Assembly (NCBI GenBank): GCA_964016885.1
Contig: OZ024742.1
Coordinates: 138,756,001 to 138,820,000 of the forward strand
Length of the DNA: 64,000 bases
Direction: 5' to 3'
Origin: Eledone cirrhosa
Taxonomy: Eukaryota
Shown here piece after piece: positions 13,849 to 64,000 of the stretch (positions within the stretch are counted from its first letter, which is position 1; each line of letters begins with the position of its first letter). The notes beneath the pieces were generated by a model. The model was not told the origin of the DNA and ran no database searches. It saw nothing but the letters and a program-made list of their open reading frames with translations. A program made the translations under genes and the position numbers.

Positions 13849-16800
13849 CACATATACACACACACTCACACACACATATACACACACACATACATTAATA
13901 ACAATAATAATAATAATAATCATAACAACAATAATAATAACGACAACAACAATAATAATATACATATACATATATATATACACACACACGCACACACAAG
14001 CATATCTACACACACACACACACACACGATAGCAACTAACAGCGCTGCGATCGAATGTGGCTTTTTAGCCCAGCCAATGATCTAAAATGTCTTGCACAGA
14101 GTCGGCAACCAAAACATTCACTGGGAATAGTCGGCTGTGGTTGGAGTTCGTGTACTTTTGCATGTCGCTTGAGCCCTCCTGCTGATTTACATTCTCTACC
14201 ACATGTTTGGCAAGCATGATGAGTAGCATCTCCAACAGCAGCCTGGTAGTCAACCACTGGTCTTACTTTATGACTGCGAAGATGACTTTCGAGTCCAGCT
14301 TTGCTTAGGCAGAGTCTCGCACATACGCTGCATGTCAGCACCATAGGAGGACCCTCGCCGTCTGGAAGTGCAACAGCAATGCCCTTCCTCACATCCCGCT
14401 TTACTTTCTCGTATGCGATTCGAGATGCCTCAAAGGCAACTTTTCCCTCATATACAGTCTTTCTCCATTTATTACGATCAGCAGCAATATTCTCCCATGT
14501 ATCAGCAGAGATGTTAGCTTCTTTCAGAGAGGCTTTCAAGGAATCCTTATACCTCTTTTTTGGTTTATGTGGCGGTCGTTTTCCTTTAACCAACTCTCCA
14601 TAAAAGAGTTGTTTTGGTATTCTAGAATCCTTCTACATACATACATACATACATACATACATACATACATACATACATACATACATACATACATACATAC
14701 CTTGGAATGTTCTTTACACAGCTGTCTTCTTCGCAACACATTAAAATACTCGCCATTTCTCCTTTCCTTTGCATGCGAAAGAATTCGAAAAGCTTGTTTG
14801 TGAACCATGTTATATAAGCGAATGAAAATAACCCTATTTTATGAGTGGGTATGATTCCCTCTCTGGAAATAGAAATCAATTATATTTAGTTTTATAATGA
14901 AAAATTTGACAGCAATGTGCTGTCCAGCACTAAAGATAAAAAACCGGGCCGCCCACCCAATATCTTCATGGTCACTCGACATTCTAGAAATAGCAGCCAA
15001 ATATCATTCAAATTACGCTCTAGCGCTTTAAAAATGGAAGGATACATTGAATAGTGTGATTCTAAATATTTGATTTACTAAATATTTGATATACTACAAT
15101 GTTTCTCCCTAGTTTCAACTAACATATTATTGAATAGGGACATTGTATGATTGAATGTTTCCAAGCTGGCTTAACAATCATGAGAGTCAGGGTTCGATCA
15201 TGTTGCGTGGCATGTTAGGCAAGTCTTTTTTTTTCATTATAGCCTCAGTTCAGACCAATACATATGAATTAAATTTGGTTGGTGGAATCTGTTTGGAAGC
15301 CATTCATGTGGACTGTAAAAGTCTGTTTCAAGCCCCGAAGCTCATCAGTTCGGTGCTTGTCCCGGTTTCCATAGCCTCAAGCGACTGAAAGTACAAGATT
15401 TCCTCCCACTAGACAGAACGCCAATCCATCGCAAGGTTAAACCCCCAGCTATTGCCGGTACTCATTTTCAACTGAGTATACGCGAGTAACGTGAAATGAA
15501 ATGTTTTGCTCAAGAACACAACACATGACCTAATCCAAGAATAGAACCCACGACATTATGATCGTAAATCCAGCACCCTTACCACTAGGCCACGCGCCTT
15601 TTGATGGACTGTATCTGTCATTCAAAGTGGAAGCCTTGTCACATAGAATCTCTTGTATATTGACGAGGTTGATTACTGTAAACTCTAATAACACTCACTC
15701 ATGGACGACTCCTTACCTAAGGCTAAGCTATTGCTAAATAACAATTATATTTACTATTATTCATTCTGATGAAAATTTATGATAAAATAAAACTTACACT
15801 TTTCCTGTTAGACGTACGGGAAGCAACATTTTCATGGCGGTTTTATATTTGGCAACGGAATCAACATGTCGGCTGGTTGATGTTAAATTATAGTTACCAG
15901 TAATTGGAGCTGAATGGATGTTAAATCTGAAATTGTAAGACACGAGTAAAACACTTGCTTTGGTTCAGGTTCTAGGATACACAGAAACACACAGACACAC
16001 AATTACACACACACATACACATAAACACATACACCTACATATATTCACATACACATGCACATACATATACTCACATACACACGCATGCACACACGCTTAA
16101 ACGTACATTTACACATACACACAGAGTTACAAACACACATAAATACATACATATACACATACATACACATTCGAACACGCACACACATGCACATACATAC
16201 ACATAATCATACACACACATATATATATACACTCTCATATACGCACATGTACACATACCCTTACATACAGGCATACACGAAACATTGACGCGAAGTTTGA
16301 AAGGCGAAGTTAATCCCGACGTAATTTGAAATCATCGTTTAAAGTAACTTAATTAAACATCACAAGGTATTTAGTTCGGCGCTCTTCAGCTTTTGATACG
16401 CCACTACACTAAACATAACTATAACAACAATAGTAATAAGTTCTTGTTTAGGCATAATGTCAGCAAAGCAATTTGAGGGGAGAGAAAAATCGATTAAATT
16501 GACCCCATATTGTCCGACGCTTTAACAACTCAGCCAATCAATAATAATTGTTTCTACTTCAGGCACAAGGCCAGCAATTTGAAGGGGCGGGGAAAGTCGA
16601 TTAAATCGATCCCAGTGCATTACTGGGGCTTTATTTTATCGACCCCGTAAGAACGAAAGGCAAAGCTAATCTCGCAGGCATTTGAACTCAGAACGTAATG
16701 GGACGTAACTATGATTCAAAGCATCATGTCTGACGCTTTACCGATACTGCCAATTCCTAATAATAATTGTTTCTACTTTAGGCACAAGACCAGCAATTAC

Positions 16801-18260: not shown

Positions 18261-18420
18261 TACGGATGTTATTTTCTTATAGAATTCTAGTAAATAATCA
18301 GGAACTGATTATACAGAGCGGTTGAGTCTGTCACTACTCTAAAACAATAGCATACGGTCTTCAAAATGCTTTTAATTAAGCATAGTATTGCAAAATACAC
18401 TATATATACATTCATATAAT

Positions 18421-18454
<34 letters not shown>

Positions 18455-18603
18455 CGAAGGAATTGTGGTAAGGAACCAGATGGACCATAACGCACCAGAG
18501 TACTCAATACTTAGGGTAGTAGAGTGGGTAATAGGAAAAAGTATGACCCTGACGGCAGAGCTCAAGCCGTTTCGACGGCTATTTCTGGACTCGTCCACTT
18601 TTT

Positions 18604-18678
<75 letters not shown>

Positions 18679-18827
18679 CGAAGGAATTGTGGTAAGGAAC
18701 CAGATGGACCATAACGCACCAGAGTACTCAATACTTAGGGTAGCAGAGTGAGTAATAGGAAAAAGTATGACCCCGACGGCAGAGCTCAAGCCGTTTCGAC
18801 GGCTATTTCTGGACTCGTCCACTTTTT

Positions 18828-18873
<46 letters not shown>

Positions 18874-33930: not shown

Positions 33931-35517
33931 GTCTACAGGTCGCAACTCCTGGTAGAATGCCTCTTTCAAGCAATCTCCTAAATCACAGATAAAACGTAAA
34001 ACACATATAAAACTAATATTGTTCTACTATTCAGCACATATGAGCTATTTAACTCTTGTGACTGAGAGATTAGTCACCGCTCCCAAGTGCACCTCATGTA
34101 CACCAGAAGATACTGATGTGATCGGGTTTACGAGATTAGCAGAATATTCTCTCCACCTTACGAGGATGCACCTCTCTGAAGAGAGGAGAACCCTAGACGC
34201 GTTCCTGATAGTATGTGTGGAGAACGATCTTATTACGAAGTCGGCGGATGATTTGCTAGAACACTTTATTTGTTGATCTGAAGTCGGATTCCAGCTTAAC
34301 TCCAAAGTCCTCCCATCCCTTAACTTTGGACGCCTTTACTGTCTCTGCTGTGGTTCTTCATGTCTGCTTATACCACAAGTGTACGAAGGCGGATTCATTT
34401 TCAAGTCAAGCTTTGTAGGTTTTCTTCTTCGCACGGATGGCTTCCTTGACCTTTTGATTGAACCAAGGCGTCCTCCTTCTATTTGGTGCCACACCAAGCC
34501 TCTTTCTCCCACAGCATTTAACAGCTGAAATATAAATAGAAACTGTTGAGCTGAACAATCTCCACTCAGTTTCAACTTACTCAGCTTGCTCAAGGAGTTT
34601 TCTGAATTTAGATGCAATAGTGTCTGCACACTCAGTCCTGACTTCCTTATCCACCAACCCTTCCCCCTTTATCCTGTAGATCACCCTGGATCTGTCAATT
34701 TTGTGGGCGCCTTTTCCTTTAGGTAGTTTCAAGTTTCAGATAACTAGATGGTGATCAGTTGATAGCTCAGCCCCTCTCTAAACACGAAATTCCAGCACAG
34801 AATTGAAGAGATCAGAGACAAAAACAAAATCAGTAATTGATAGTGTAAATACATTTATGAATATACAAAATATGTATATTCTGAACAATAAATATACAGG
34901 TTTTATTTTATACACGCTCTTCTCTTTCTTTAGCTCATCTCTTCAATAGGAAGAACAGGATACAACAAAAACTAAAAGAAAATATTCCAAAAGTCTTTGT
35001 AAGTGTGATAGACTTGTAACTCTTGAGGGAGTCGTCCGGGGGCCGCAGTGACATATCTGTGTTTGGGCATTTTAAAATTTTTCCAAAACTATCCATTCTC
35101 TAGGTCTAAAAACAGCCGATTTCTAATAGAGAGGGAGAGAGGGAGGAGAGGGAGAGAGAGTGAGATAGAGAGAGAGAAAATTTACCCTTTACAAGGACTG
35201 GTACTTTTTTATCGACCTTGAAAGTATAAAGAATTCAACTGACCTCGGCGGTATTTGAACTTTGGAAAGCATTCTATCTGACCTTCTGCCGATTCGCAAT
35301 CACTTAAAGATTTTATAAATTACTTGAACCACTGTTTATAATTGGTATAAAAGGGCATCGTAGATTGTCCTGAAAGGAATACCTAAGGTAACAGCGGGGG
35401 AGTAGCTATCGGATTTAATATGAAAAAACAGACCGACAACTCGACCAAAAGCACGACCGAAAACATAGAATAGGTGGCAGTGTGGAACCAATAATAGTTA
35501 ATTGATTGATAAATATA

Positions 35518-36596
35518 AGTTTGTACACGTACATACATATATGTATACAGACGTACAGTAGTATGTATATATATATATACATACATGCATACATATATAT
35601 ATGTACGTATGGATTCACCGAACATTTATTATATTGCTCGGTGTGTTTGTAAACAAACATCCCGTATTAAACCGTAGTGTCCAGTAACCATCGTTGCTCG
35701 TTTGTTCAACACTGACAAAGGAACGCTGTACTAGTTTCAAGCTTATTAGCTATCGTAAGCAACGTATACCTTCCTGCCAGATTGTTGAACGTATATACTT
35801 ACCTTATGCATATTAACAGCTGAGAAGCCCAATTTGCATATCGAGTGGGTTAATCGGCCGGGTGCACCGAAAACGATAAACGGAAAAAATGAAACGAAAT
35901 TTCATTTCCCACTCTTAGTACGCTGTTACTTAAATATAAGTATGTACACGTACATACATATATGTATACAGACGTACAGTAGTATGTATATATATGTATA
36001 TATATATATACATACATGCACACATATATATATGTACGTATGGATTCACCGAACATTTATTATATTGCTCGGTGTGTTTGTAAACAAACATCCCGTATTA
36101 AGCCGTAGTGTCCAGTAACCATCGTTGCTCGTTTGTTCAACACTGACAAAGGAACGCTGTACTAGTTTCAAGCTTATTAGCTATCGTAAGCAACGTATAC
36201 CTTCCTGCCAAATTGTTGAACGTATTAATACGGCTGTTAATATGCATAAGGTAAGTATATACGTTCAACAATCTGGCAGGAAGATATACGTTGCTGACGA
36301 TAGCTAATAAGCTTGAAACTAGTACAGCGTTCCTTTGTCAGTGTTGAACAAACGAGCAACGATGGTTGCTGGACACTACGGCTTAAAACGGGATGTTTGT
36401 TTACAAACAAAACCGAGCAACATAATAAATGTTCGGTGAATCCATACGTACATATATATATGTGTGCATGTATGTATATATATATATACATACTACTGTA
36501 CGTCTGTATACATATATGTATGTACGTGTACATACTTATATTTAAGTAACAGCCGTACTAAGAGTGGGAAATGAAATTTCGTTTCATTTTTTTCCG
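35518..36596. mobile_element. Retrozyme-like composite (family C): ~431-bp direct tandem units plus inverted unit, flanked by a 16-bp direct repeat
   Basis: Hammerheads at 35723-35765 (-), 36154-36196 (-), 36288-36330 (+); TTGATTGATAAATATA at 35502-35517 and 36597-36612. Confidence 0.8.
36263..36349 (+). ncRNA. Type I hammerhead ribozyme, intact core, palindromic stem III, predicted cleavage after A36324 (GUA)
   Basis: acgttg-CTGACGA-t-agct(aata)agct-t-GAAA-ctag-TA-cagcgt; distal stems ctggcagg/tttgtcag and gttcaaca/tgttgaac. Confidence 0.8.
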
Positions 36597-36737
36597 TTGA
36601 TTGATAAATATATATTAAAAAATAGACAATCTCTATTATTTTCTGCGTACGAAGGTGAGACAAAATGTTTTTCCATTTGTTTATGTTTTCACAATCACGT
36701 TTACGATTATGAAAAACCTGTATATGTATGTGTGTAT

Positions 36738-42285: not shown

Positions 42286-42347
<62 letters not shown>

Positions 42348-42545
42348 CGAATGAATTGTGGTAAGGAACCAGATGGACCATAACGCACCAGAGTACTCAA
42401 TACTTAGGGTAGTAGAGTGGGTAATAGGATAAAGTATGACTCCGACGGCAGAGCTCAAGCTGTTTCGACGGCTATTTTGGGACTTCTGAGTCCAGAAATA
42501 GCCGTCGAAACGGCTTGAGCTCTGCCGTCGGGGTCATGCTTTTTC

Positions 42546-43532
<987 letters not shown>

Positions 43533-59560: not shown

Positions 59561-61303
59561 CCATTAAGTAAAATGCTCAATGAAACAAAACATGGATATA
59601 AAGTCTATGACAAAACCATTAATCACCTGTTCTACATGGATGACCTGAAACTATTTGCAAAAAATGATGAACAATTGCAAGGGCTATTATCCACTGTGAA
59701 GCAGTTCAGTGATGACATTAAAATGGAGTTTGGACTAGATAAATGCGCCAAAGCAACGTTCACCAGAGGAAAGCTGCTGAAGAGTTCAGACATTAATCTT
59801 GATCGGGGGAACGTGATAAGAGAACTTGATCAAGAAAAAACTTACAAATATCTAGGTGTTGTGAAGGAGACGGAGTCAAGCACTCGACAATGAGGGAAAG
59901 GATAAGGAAGGAATGTTACCGCAGAGTAAGAGCAATCTTGAGAACGGAATTGAATGCAAGGAATAGGATCGATGCCATAAACACGCTTGCCATACCAGTA
60001 GTAACCTATAGTTACAATGTCATCAACTGGTCAAGCACAGAGATCCGTAGGCTCGATACAAAAATTAGAAAATTCTTAACCATGCACAGAATACATCACC
60101 CTAAGGCAGATATAGATAGAATATATCTCCCTAGGAAAGAAGGAGGACGTGGGTTAATCCAGTTAGACATTGCGTTGAAAACTGTAACAATTGGATTATC
60201 TACATATCTAAGGGAATCACATGATTGGATGATCAAACTCGTTTTGAAACACGAAAGCATCAAAAGATCATATTCCATTACAAAAGATGCACAAAGATAC
60301 AGTAATGGACTACAAATTTCAGAAGTCCCATTTACTACTGAAATGGAAAACACAGAAAAAGCAAAGCAGGTAAAAGTAACTGCAAAGAAAGAACTGCATG
60401 GAAAATACTACTGTATGGAAAATACCCAGAGCGAGCTAACAATCCTGATGTTGACAAAACTTTAACCCATCAGTGGTTGGCATCCTCTGGACTGAAATTG
60501 GAGACTGAAGGACTGATTATATCGGCACAAGATCAGTGTCTGCCAACAAAAAATTTCCAAGCCAACATAATAAAAAATGGGTGCAGCCCATTATGCCGTG
60601 TATGCAAAAAACAACCAGAGACCATTGACCATATAATTTCAATGTGCAGTCCTATAGCTCCAACCGAATACCTAAACAGGCATGACAGAGCTGCACAATA
60701 CATACATTGGATAATGTGTAAGCATTTTGACCTGCCCCATCAAAAGAATTGGTGGGAGCATCAACCACCTCCCATACTTGAAAAAGATCACATCTCAATC
60801 TTGTGGAACTTTAGCATCCAAACAGACCGAAAAATAGATGCAAACAGACCTGATATAATATTGAAAGACTTTCAAAAGAGGGTATGCCTGCTAATTGATA
60901 TGTCTGTTCCAATAGACAAGAATGTATCTATAAAAACATTTGAAAAATTGAGCAATTATAAGGACCTGGAGATAGAAATTGGAAAAATGTGGAAATTGAG
61001 AACTAAAACAATACCAGTGGTTGTAGGCGCTCTGGGAATGATACCTAGGGGGTCTAGTGATTACATATCGCAAATCCCAGGAAACCCGCGTATAGGAGAA
61101 ATACAAAAGATAGTACTAATGGGAACTTCCCATATACTAAGGAAGATTCTGTCAATATAAGTACATCACAAGTCTAAACACTAAAGATGCATGTGTGAAT
61201 ATGTATGTTCTTTCTTGAACATGGCGGACCTTGTTGTCTCTTGAGGTCACTGGTTGTGACTTGGTGATAACTCGTATGAACATAAAGCAAGATAAATGCA
61301 ACT

Positions 61304-61304
<1 letters not shown>
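59558..61304 (+). mobile_element. R4/Dong-like LINE, 5'-truncated (RT C-terminus, CCHC, RLE), (TAA)n tail
   Basis: HLFYMDDLKL, EGGRGL, CRVC...ETIDHIISMC, RHD, RPDII..D..K; two frameshifts. Confidence 0.9.
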
Positions 61305-61349
<45 letters not shown>

Positions 61350-61398
61350 TAATAATTATTTTTTTTAGGTTTTTACCTATTTATTTGTTTATTTATTT

Positions 61399-64000
61399 AT
61401 GTTCGTCTACAGCGTGATAGTGCCACGCTAAAATCACTGGGGGTGATGAAATCACCGGTGGTTATGTAACCATACATTCACCAATCCTCGATATGAGTGT
61501 TTAAATGTCGAACCTAAACAGTTCGAATAACGGTGAAGTGGAGACTGGAATGTCATGTGACAGACTCTCATCCAACAGGTGCTCCCTGGCCCAGCAGCAG
61601 GGACCTGGCTGTCATCCAAATACTGCTGGTGTTGGAGGAAGAAGAAGAAGGAAAGGGACCAGAACCAACTGGACGAAAGAATTGAATAGAACTGTTATGC
61701 AATGTTACCTGAAGAGTAACCCCAAGGAAAAAGGCTATAGGAAACGGATGCATAGCATCTGGAACGAGATTGGTCTATTTAAATTAGATGAACAAAAATT
61801 GGCCGGGCAGGCTCGGATAATAAGAACTAATGCGTGGATAAGCGAGCTGGAACTGGAGGAACTCAGCAGAGAGATTAGATTGGAAATGGAGAGTGGAGTA
61901 TGCCAGGCAAACGAGACAGCGGGAGATGAACGTGGAGAAGAGGTTGAGAGAACGGAGGAACCATCCGAAGCAGACAATGATCTGAATGCTGAGATAAATA
62001 ACATCTGGAACAAAGATACGGTCATTGAGGAAATGAATGTTGACGGGCTAGGACAAGATTTGGTTGATATCCTAAACTTAGTGGTAGATGAAATGAACAA
62101 TGATAGTGGGAAACCTATGAACCTAAGATTTGTAGACAAGAAAAAGTTAGAAGAAACAACAGCTAAGGTAAACAAAGTCATCCCATACCTTGAGGCGAGG
62201 AGCCTTCACCAGTGCAACAATATCCTCAAAGCAATAGCAAATGCGGTGAGGAAATTACTTGGCATAAAAGCGAGAGGAAACAACAAACAAGAAAGATCAG
62301 AACCTTGGTGGAAGAAACGACTGAATGGTCAAATCGGGGAAATGAGAAATGACATTGGAAAGCTGAATGGGACACTAAAAAACATAGACACTAAAAATAG
62401 ACTTGAAATAAAGTACAAAACTAGGAGGAAAAGGCTAAATATTATCATAGAGGAACTGAAGCAACGCATTATAGCAAAGAGTGCAAAAATTAGGCGATAC
62501 GAGAGCAGAGTCAGTCAGTATAGACAGAACCTCATGTTTGACAACAACCAGAAGATGTTGTTTGGACAGCTTGAAGAGAAAGAAAGAGGCAACGACTTGA
62601 TCCCTGAGGCGGAACAAACTAAGACATTCTGGAGAGGAATATGGGAGCAGGATGTTAAACATAATGACCAGGCAGTGTGGATTGAGACAGTACAAAAGGA
62701 GATTAGTGAACAGGCACACCAACAAACTGATTTGAGTATCACAGTTGAAACTCTCAAGGAGCAGGCTAAAAAACTAACCAGCTGTAGATCACCAGGCCCA
62801 GATGGTGTGCAGGGGTATTGGATTAAAAATGTAACATCCCTCCACCCGAAACTGACAACCATGTTCAATGACTGCTTGATGTCAGGTGAGGTACCAGAGT
62901 GGTTGACAAAAGGTACCACAGTTCTGGTAATCAAAGACCGAATCAAGGATAATGATGTTACCAACTATAGACCTATCACATGACTGTCAGTAATGTGGAA
63001 ACTGTTAACGAGCATTGTGTCTGAGGAAATCTACCATCACCTCCACACAAACAACTTGTTACCGGACGAACAGAAAGGATGCCGAAAGAAGACCCGTGGT
63101 ACAAAGGACCAGTTACTTATTGATAAGATGGTAATGAGGAATTGCAAGAGGAGACACACTGGTATTGCCATGGGATGGATAGAATACAAAAAGGCATTTG
63201 ACATGGTGCCTCATTCTTGGATCACCAAAAGCCTAGAGATCTTCAAGGTGGCAGATAACATCAGACAGTTGTTGAGCAAAAGTATGAAGTCCTGGAAAAC
63301 ACAGTAAACATCAGCTGGAGAATCCTTGGGAGGCGTGAAGATCAAGAGAGGTATCTTCCAGGGAGATAGTCTGTCCCCTCTGTTGTTTGTCCTTGCCCTG
63401 ATGCCCCTGACCATTATACTGCGAAAAGTGAGAGCAGGATACAAGTTGGGAAAGGGAGAGCTTACCATCAATCACCTCCTCTTCATGGACGATCTTAAGC
63501 TCTTCGGGAAGAGTGAGAAGGAGTTGGATGTGCTTGTTGACACTGTCCGTATTTTCACCAATGATATATATATGCAATTTGGTATTAGTAAGTGTGGAGT
63601 CCTTGTGATGAAGAGGGGTAAATTGAGCAGAAGCAACGGAATCCAGGTACCAACAGGTGAGATGATAAAGGAAATTTATACTGAAGAAGGATACAAGTAT
63701 TTGGGTATTCTGGAGGCTGATGTCATCAAAAACAAAAAAATGAAGGAATTGATAAGATCTGAATACATTCGGAGAGTAAGGAGCGTATTAAAGTCACATC
63801 TGAACAGTAGGAATGCCATAAGTGCAGTAAATTCCAGAGCTGTGTCTATTGTTAGGTACAGTGCGGAAATTCTGAGATGGAATGTTGCTGAACAAAAAGA
63901 AATGGATAGGAAGACTAGGAAGCTATTGACTATCTACAACATGTTCCACAAGAGGAGTAATGTCGATAGACTCTACTTAAGGAGATCTGAAGGTGGAAGA
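61399..64000 (+). mobile_element. Second R4/Dong-like LINE from its 5' end, ORF from 61505 with premature stops at 62981 and 63305; runs off the right edge
   Basis: [59 protein letters not shown]. Confidence 0.9.

Follow-up and report, generated by a model that had tools for sequence, protein, structure and literature searches.

Metazoan non-LTR retrozymes have been described by Cervera and de la Pena 2020 (PMC7229834) and by Li et al. 2026 (bioRxiv 10.64898/2026.07.22.740005), and in the sections of these papers drawn on here, the case for their mobilization by Penelope-like elements (PLEs) rests on co-occurrence and on pLTR homology. Hammerheads with a weak helix III are reported to require dimers (PMC4209133; PMC7229834), and cleavage is given for one of nine predicted dimers in the cited section of Li 2026 (bioRxiv 10.64898/2026.07.22.740005). 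EN+ PLE insertions are described as carrying tandem and inverted repeats, a target-site duplication (TSD), and a tail on one end (PMC3846280; PMC8557442). The cited part of Craig 2021 (PMC8557442) calls the origin of such tandem-plus-inverted, one-tailed PLE insertions undefined. In vitro, two internal RT start sites define the tail of the Poseidon element PAc of Anolis, according to the cited results of Frangieh 2024 (PMC11167929). A search of titles and abstracts, mostly of open-access literature, listed no publication on the family described below or on a counted one-tail rule.

Layout of the locus

The window analyzed here is a 64-kb stretch of the Eledone cirrhosa genome (contig OZ024742.1), within which positions 35502-36612 hold three hammerheads and an inverted arm, bracketed by an exact 16-bp repeat. 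We number the monomer M1-421, with M421 being the commonest 3′ end of the family. On the minus strand, Unit A (35510..35875, M1-366) forms the 3′ part of a tailless arm that ends at the fixed site M366, and its Hammerhead A (35704..35790, core start at 35759) carries G5U at 35757 and is predicted to be dead. Unit B (35876..36225, minus strand, M82-421) is 5′-truncated, has gained 10 nt by microsatellite expansion, and contains an internal tail (35876-35930, minus strand) as well as Hammerhead B (36135..36221, minus strand, core start at 36190, G5U at 36188). Together, they make a minus arm of 716 nt that reads M82-421 and then M1-366. The plus arm of 369 nt, Unit C (36233..36601, M56-421), is also 5′-truncated but tailed, its 55-nt “tail” (M367-421, 36545..36601, plus strand) lying between the two fixed 3′ ends and bearing a conserved hairpin. 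Hammerhead C (36263..36349, plus strand) is of type I, with a U-U at the base of helix II, a helix III of one pair plus a palindromic CUAG, an intact core at 36294, and a predicted cut after 36324. The 5′ ends of the arms meet at the inversion junction (36221..36232), a 12-bp palindrome in which 7 nt of filler separate the arms. All three cores carry GAAACUAGUA, and no unit of the three is complete.

The earlier note had reported two minus-strand hammerheads 431 bp apart, both reading CUUACGA, and an inverted plus-strand hammerhead reading CUGACGA, and all are found at the core positions given above. Its 431-bp unit, however, gives way to a monomer of 421 bp, as the middle copy has gained 10 nt of microsatellite that the 431-bp spacing includes; a circle, if formed, would measure about 421 nt. 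The inverted copy has kept its CUGACGA core, as claimed, but is not wholly intact, since a rare G>A at 36284, seen in 3 of 164 units, falls in distal helix I of Hammerhead C. With two damaged cores on the minus strand and a single hammerhead on the plus strand, the locus is predicted to be unable to release a monomer.

The reported 16-bp bracket is exact at 35502-35517 on the left and 36597-36612 on the right. These are the only two occurrences in the window, against 0.0004 expected from base composition. The last 8 nt of the left copy are the reverse complement of M359-366, so that the left end matches this stretch over 8 nt, while on the right the match covers the final 5 nt before the M421 terminus, with one mismatch. 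Because element sequence also covers 8 nt (left) and 2 nt (right) of the 16-mer, the duplication doubles as primer microhomology. The value of this locus lies mainly in its having landed outside a (TA)n run, which leaves both the TSD and the primer microhomologies readable. No frame of 130 amino acids lies inside the element, although its right end is overlapped by two frames of simple repeats. The 2-kb bins containing it have a GC content of 37-39%.

Elsewhere in the window, a second and older copy of the family (42591-43437, 85-88% identity) sits in (TA)n and combines a tailless minus arm with a tailed plus arm, with an intact CUGAUGA core at 42834 (minus strand). A repeat of approximately 200 bp occurs in (TA)n runs at 18401-18870 and 42346-42540; it is tandem at 18.4 kb (period 224), forms a long hairpin at about 42451-42523, and is possibly another element of PLE type. 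At 59830-62983 and 14036-14632 lie broken reverse transcriptase frames that are LINE-like. A minus-strand frame at about 1480-1600 resembles an ABCC-type transporter exon, and the window may be largely intron.

A hammerhead repeat family and its sisters

The intact 36-nt core has 5,299 exact matches in the 3.0-Gb assembly. Two further, mutually exclusive core patterns match 11,816 and 11,012 times, respectively, and reversed control patterns have no matches. Intact cores thus number about 28,000 with the sister families included. Within the family, the spacings cluster at 420-423 and 427-429, whereas the sister units measure 466 nt (M2) and 465 nt (M3), and the M3 copies are about 99% alike. 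Arrays of the family range from one to tens of units. The earlier assignment to a retrozyme family is supported. Family pieces also occur in sequencing contigs of four other organisms and, thinly, of a fifth.

Rfam at gathering thresholds produced no match in the window, and the hammerhead call accordingly rests on motif and covariation. We aligned 10 hand-picked hammerheads from the three families, in which the catalytic core is invariant except at N7 and 91% of the alignment cells are paired. Two-sided changes are found in 6 of 21 pairs, all in helices I and II, compared to 0 to 3 in slid controls and 0 of 500 shuffles, a result that does not amount to a probability because the sequences are kin. 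The palindromic helix III is unchanged throughout, and nine of the 10 have U-U as the basal pair of helix II. By predicted structure, the family hammerhead is a canonical type I with an extended helix I and a weak helix III. The earlier description of stem III as a dimer-type palindrome is in agreement, as weak palindromic helices III are of the kind reported to require dimers in the cited parts of PMC4209133 and PMC7229834. The minimum-energy fold of the monomer keeps helices I and II and mispairs the core (z −2.1). We set aside the homodimer fold as evidence (−55.1 versus 2 × −25.4 kcal/mol) because that fold is not catalytic.

Several further features concern the wider family. At M35-42 (window 35834-35841, minus strand) lies ATGCAAAT, which occupies the same place in M2 and M3 and is conserved in the three families; it matches the POU octamer motif and may be a promoter element. 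Satellite-like retrozyme arrays of tens of units are present at L121-L123, L161-L163, and L299-L318, and the L161 array begins with a short inverted tailed arm. The 3.9 M2 units at L244-L247 (C1, 11.82 Mb) are 100% identical, including the truncated one, which marks a very young insertion and a good candidate for rolling-circle copying. The two-arm M3 array at L278-L288 (C3, 267.526-267.533 Mb) has about 14 units, with one arm repeating at a five-unit period.

Two-arm insertions mostly pair a tailed with a tailless arm

We sampled 130 loci, dropped 17 that were redundant or within long arrays, left out insertions at locus edges or shorter than 200 bp, and classed 113 insertions. The loci are a nonrandom set of best hits, first places on contig C1, and G5U carriers, and nearly all were picked for containing a hammerhead, which biases the counts of 5′ ends. 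A head-to-head two-arm layout is present in 52 of the 113 insertions. Single-arm insertions end at M421 (24), at M366 (20), or elsewhere (13), and the remaining four have other layouts. The strand inversion proposed in the earlier note is no one-off switch; it is a regular PLE-type outcome in this family, recurring in 52 of 113 sampled insertions with the arms ending at different fixed sites.

The ends of the 52 two-arm insertions are uneven: 38 pair M421 with M366, one has M421 at both ends, none has M366 at both, and in 13 one of the ends is unclassified. Tailed and tailless arms are thus mixed in 38 of the 39 classifiable cases (p about 5e-11). A tail-selected sample is mixed in all eight classifiable insertions, two of which are one duplicated locus, with four unclassified. 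The sister families follow suit, with mixed ends in 7 of 7 clear cases in M2 (two unclear) and in 14 of 14 classifiable cases, of 16, in M3. A near-strict rule of one tailed and one tailless arm per two-arm insertion emerges from these counts, and the two different fixed stops of the arms likely show how such elements get copied into DNA.

The flanks, judged by eye, are mostly (TA)n, which hides the TSD. Among two-arm loci with imperfect TA flanks, 16 of 18 have a TSD of 11 to 20 nt, a soft count since these flanks are TA-rich. One or both arms exceed the monomer length in 28 of 39 two-arm insertions, and only 4 of 135 5′ ends fall within M140-156, where the cut site lies, with no pile-up. Over-length arms without a gathering of 5′ ends at the cut site indicate that the templates ran through hammerhead sites. 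Of the multimeric or circular template suggested in the earlier note, a length beyond one monomer is supported in the window as well, where the 716-nt minus arm extends past one monomer and crosses the cut site twice. We disregarded an accumulation of 5′ ends at M1, which is probably an edge effect of BLAST.

A single source and the probable route of insertion

Across the family, 41% of derived alleles are shared between opposite arms, compared to 10% in random pairs. Rare alleles are shared by opposite arms in 8 of 34 insertions and at a similar rate by same-arm units (11 of 44), compared to 44 of 2,098 random pairs. In the window, M242 T>A is carried by all three units and by no other among the 199 units compared, which supports the earlier claim of one insertion event. 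As far as sequence can establish it, both arms came from one source; arm-to-arm conversion could also produce or add to the allele sharing between them.

The family, the architecture, the two fixed 3′ ends, the TSD, and the single source of both arms established above are probably the product of one insertion of a non-coding, ~421-nt non-LTR retrozyme, copied in by a PLE reverse transcriptase with its GIY-YIG endonuclease. The PLE enzyme would nick the two strands of an AT-rich target at positions separated by 16 nt. Each free 3′ end would then base-pair with a short, AU-rich segment of the RNA to prime a cDNA of its own, starting at M421 in one case and at M366 in the other. Both cDNAs would pass hammerhead sites that are uncut or re-ligated, in a multimer or circle, before stopping at unrelated points and being joined head to head via a short palindrome. 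Covariation between M and M2 is seen in a helix that pairs the tail with M21-27; this helix spans M421, as would fit initiation within a longer or circular RNA. The 3.9 identical units at L244-L247 fit a circle as template, and the five-unit period in the M3 array fits either an array transcript or DNA duplication. The microhomology at both ends is a point against this route, as the initiation sites in the cited part of Frangieh 2024 are non-homologous to the target (PMC11167929).

The strongest competing explanation is that a single primed cDNA folds back by palindrome self-priming and copies itself or switches template, after which the endonuclease trims one tail. It would account for both the shared alleles and the single tail per insertion, and the window junction is a 12-bp palindrome. 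The literature also lends it support, with junction palindromes and a self-priming proposal in the cited part of Arkhipova 2013 (PMC3846280) and the tail ascribed to EN-mediated resolution in that of Craig 2021 (PMC8557442). However, the arms in the window are not plain copies of each other: the tailed arm starts at M56 and the other at M82, and M1-55 is present only in the tailless arm. Across 39 two-arm insertions, a set defined with a slightly wider threshold and one locus added relative to the end classification, arm lengths are uncorrelated (rho −0.15) and the breakpoints are at most 5 nt apart in only three (permutation p 0.18); 10 are at most 30 nt apart (p 0.09), which favors fold-back. 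The cited in vitro results, with two RT start sites and both strands nicked, also speak against it (Frangieh 2024, PMC11167929). We therefore consider it unlikely as the origin of the insertion, but some fold-back may contribute, given the 10 close breakpoints and the junction palindrome here.

Two-strand priming by a PLE enzyme could also be taken further. PLE integration may be obligately two-primer, with a dimeric enzyme reserving one nicked strand for the start at M421 and the second for that at M366, and with two RNA units from one source held by a palindromic helix III dimer, so that the ribozyme doubles as a template-dimerization signal. We regard this extension as decidedly unlikely; if true, the three families, whose copies number in the tens of thousands, would make it countable and testable. 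Among the listed sequencing contigs of eight runs over 35180-36715, no joint skips the element. The left junction is spanned by two runs from one sample, and the runs of other organisms cover the family, not the unique flanks.

The element has neither an RT nor a GIY-YIG ORF and is not an autonomous PLE. Matches to a GIY-YIG profile gave 10,595 first-look candidates, of which 150 were scored, and the genome is rich in autonomous PLEs, among them several families combining an RT with a C-terminal GIY-YIG, with ORFs of up to 1,096 amino acids stop to stop. No homolog of the monomer, including pLTR homology, was found in 50 GIY-YIG loci out of the 10,595 first-look candidates. In the absence of a sequence-sharing PLE, we infer the partner from the marks of insertion. 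Loci L212, L213, L216, and L224 represent a PLE family with an RT, a C-terminal GIY-YIG, and a 3′ hammerhead of retrozyme design. This hammerhead has a palindromic helix III and a U-U at the base of helix II, and it is through this design, rather than through sequence, that the L212 group is a candidate partner. Nine variant-hammerhead loci considered as PLE ends proved to be sister retrozymes.

The G5U change

G5 is essential for hammerhead cleavage. The G5U that the earlier note ascribed to the direct copies is indeed present in both, but it is a private change: the G5U core has 31 matches genome-wide versus 5,299 intact ones, or approximately 0.6% of intact cores as counted with patterns of unequal length, a frequency that agrees with neutral decay. 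At no other locus do two G5U cores lie within one unit length of each other. Both direct copies carry G5U together with M191 G>A, neither of which is in Unit C, and they differ from each other at M96, M205, M286, and M355. Since the shared changes are confined to a tract bounded by the differences at M96 and M205, G5U likely reflects a later local conversion between the direct copies, outside the insertion mechanism. A tract of 73 to 108 nt with G5U would have been copied between the two direct units after insertion. Higher-order repeats in long arrays, namely, alternating units (L120) and the five-unit period in the large M3 array, indicate that DNA-level exchange acts on the family.

The shared pair of changes, absent from Unit C, could also mean that G5U was already in the template, with dead ribozymes leaving a dimer uncut to serve as template for the minus arm, and a different RNA serving for the plus arm. 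We find this very unlikely. In the first 30 loci, 46 of 58 hammerheads are fully intact, and multi-unit arms with intact cores are common, so dead cores are unneeded. The other G5U matches of the 31 never lie within one unit length, the shared changes are limited to one tract between M96 and M205, and the private M242 allele is common to all three units. Assembly at the DNA level, through separate insertions or a tandem and an inverted duplication with the 16-mer as a chance AT-rich match, could draw on the DNA-level amplification evident in the higher-order repeats and on the two changes shared by the direct copies and absent from the third, but it is highly improbable given the private allele in all three units, the same geometry in dozens of loci of three families, a 16-mer that is exact at both ends, and the presence of M1-55 in Unit A and in neither other unit.

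Comparison with known systems

Conversion and DNA-level exchange aside, the preferred reading of PLE-driven insertion resembles L1 twin priming, in which two target 3′ ends prime two cDNAs and leave an inverted 5′ part within one TSD. The second primer of L1 lands variably and leaves adjacent breakpoints, whereas the sites here are fixed and the breakpoints mostly unrelated.

By its sequence features, the family is a non-LTR retrozyme, with one hammerhead per unit, 421-nt tandems, no coding capacity, low GC content, and a TSD. It thereby resembles the non-LTR retrozymes described so far in the cited sections of PMC7229834 and bioRxiv 10.64898/2026.07.22.740005, which have non-coding head-to-tail units of 150 to 450 nt with one type I hammerhead each, a GC content below 50%, a TSD of more than 4 bp, thousands of copies, and PLEs in the same genome. 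A helix III of one pair plus a palindromic tetraloop also characterizes the axolotl HHR_Amex1, and a U-U at the base of helix II characterizes HHR_Amex2 (both in the cited part of PMC7229834). In contrast, the fixed 3′ ends, the tail, and the inverted arm set the family apart from retrozymes as described, the word “inverted” being absent from the cited text of PMC7229834. No pLTR homolog is present in the 50 loci, compared to the 21 PLE matches given for Xenopus families in that literature. With G5U in two of three cores, the locus also falls outside the “active” class as defined in the cited section of Li 2026 by two consecutive complete motifs.

The likeness to EN+ PLE insertions, as far as the cited sections describe them, extends to two direct repeats and one inverted repeat, 5′ truncation, a TSD, a head-to-head palindrome junction, a tail at one end only, and a (TA)n bias. 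The differences are that there is no ORF here, the tail is 55 nt (about 70 in M3) rather than 30 to 40, and the TSD is about 11 to 20 rather than 8 to 10. The single tail is nearly strict here but “optional” or “often” present in EN+ PLEs (cited parts of PMC3846280 and PMC8557442). Poseidon PAc similarly cuts and extends both target strands at an AT-rich target, uses uncut RNA as the main template, and has a predicted protein dimer (cited part of PMC11167929). Its starts are AC-rich, within an ORF, and target-nonhomologous, while those here are AU-rich, non-coding, and microhomologous (same part of PMC11167929).

As a short substrate that lacks ORFs and has young copies in the thousands, the family offers a minimal RNA for in vitro work, and the one-tail rule with its two mapped starts gives direct, insertion-level support for PLE mobilization. 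Set against these systems, the kind of element is already known, the family is new, and what the family adds is the rule of end asymmetry.
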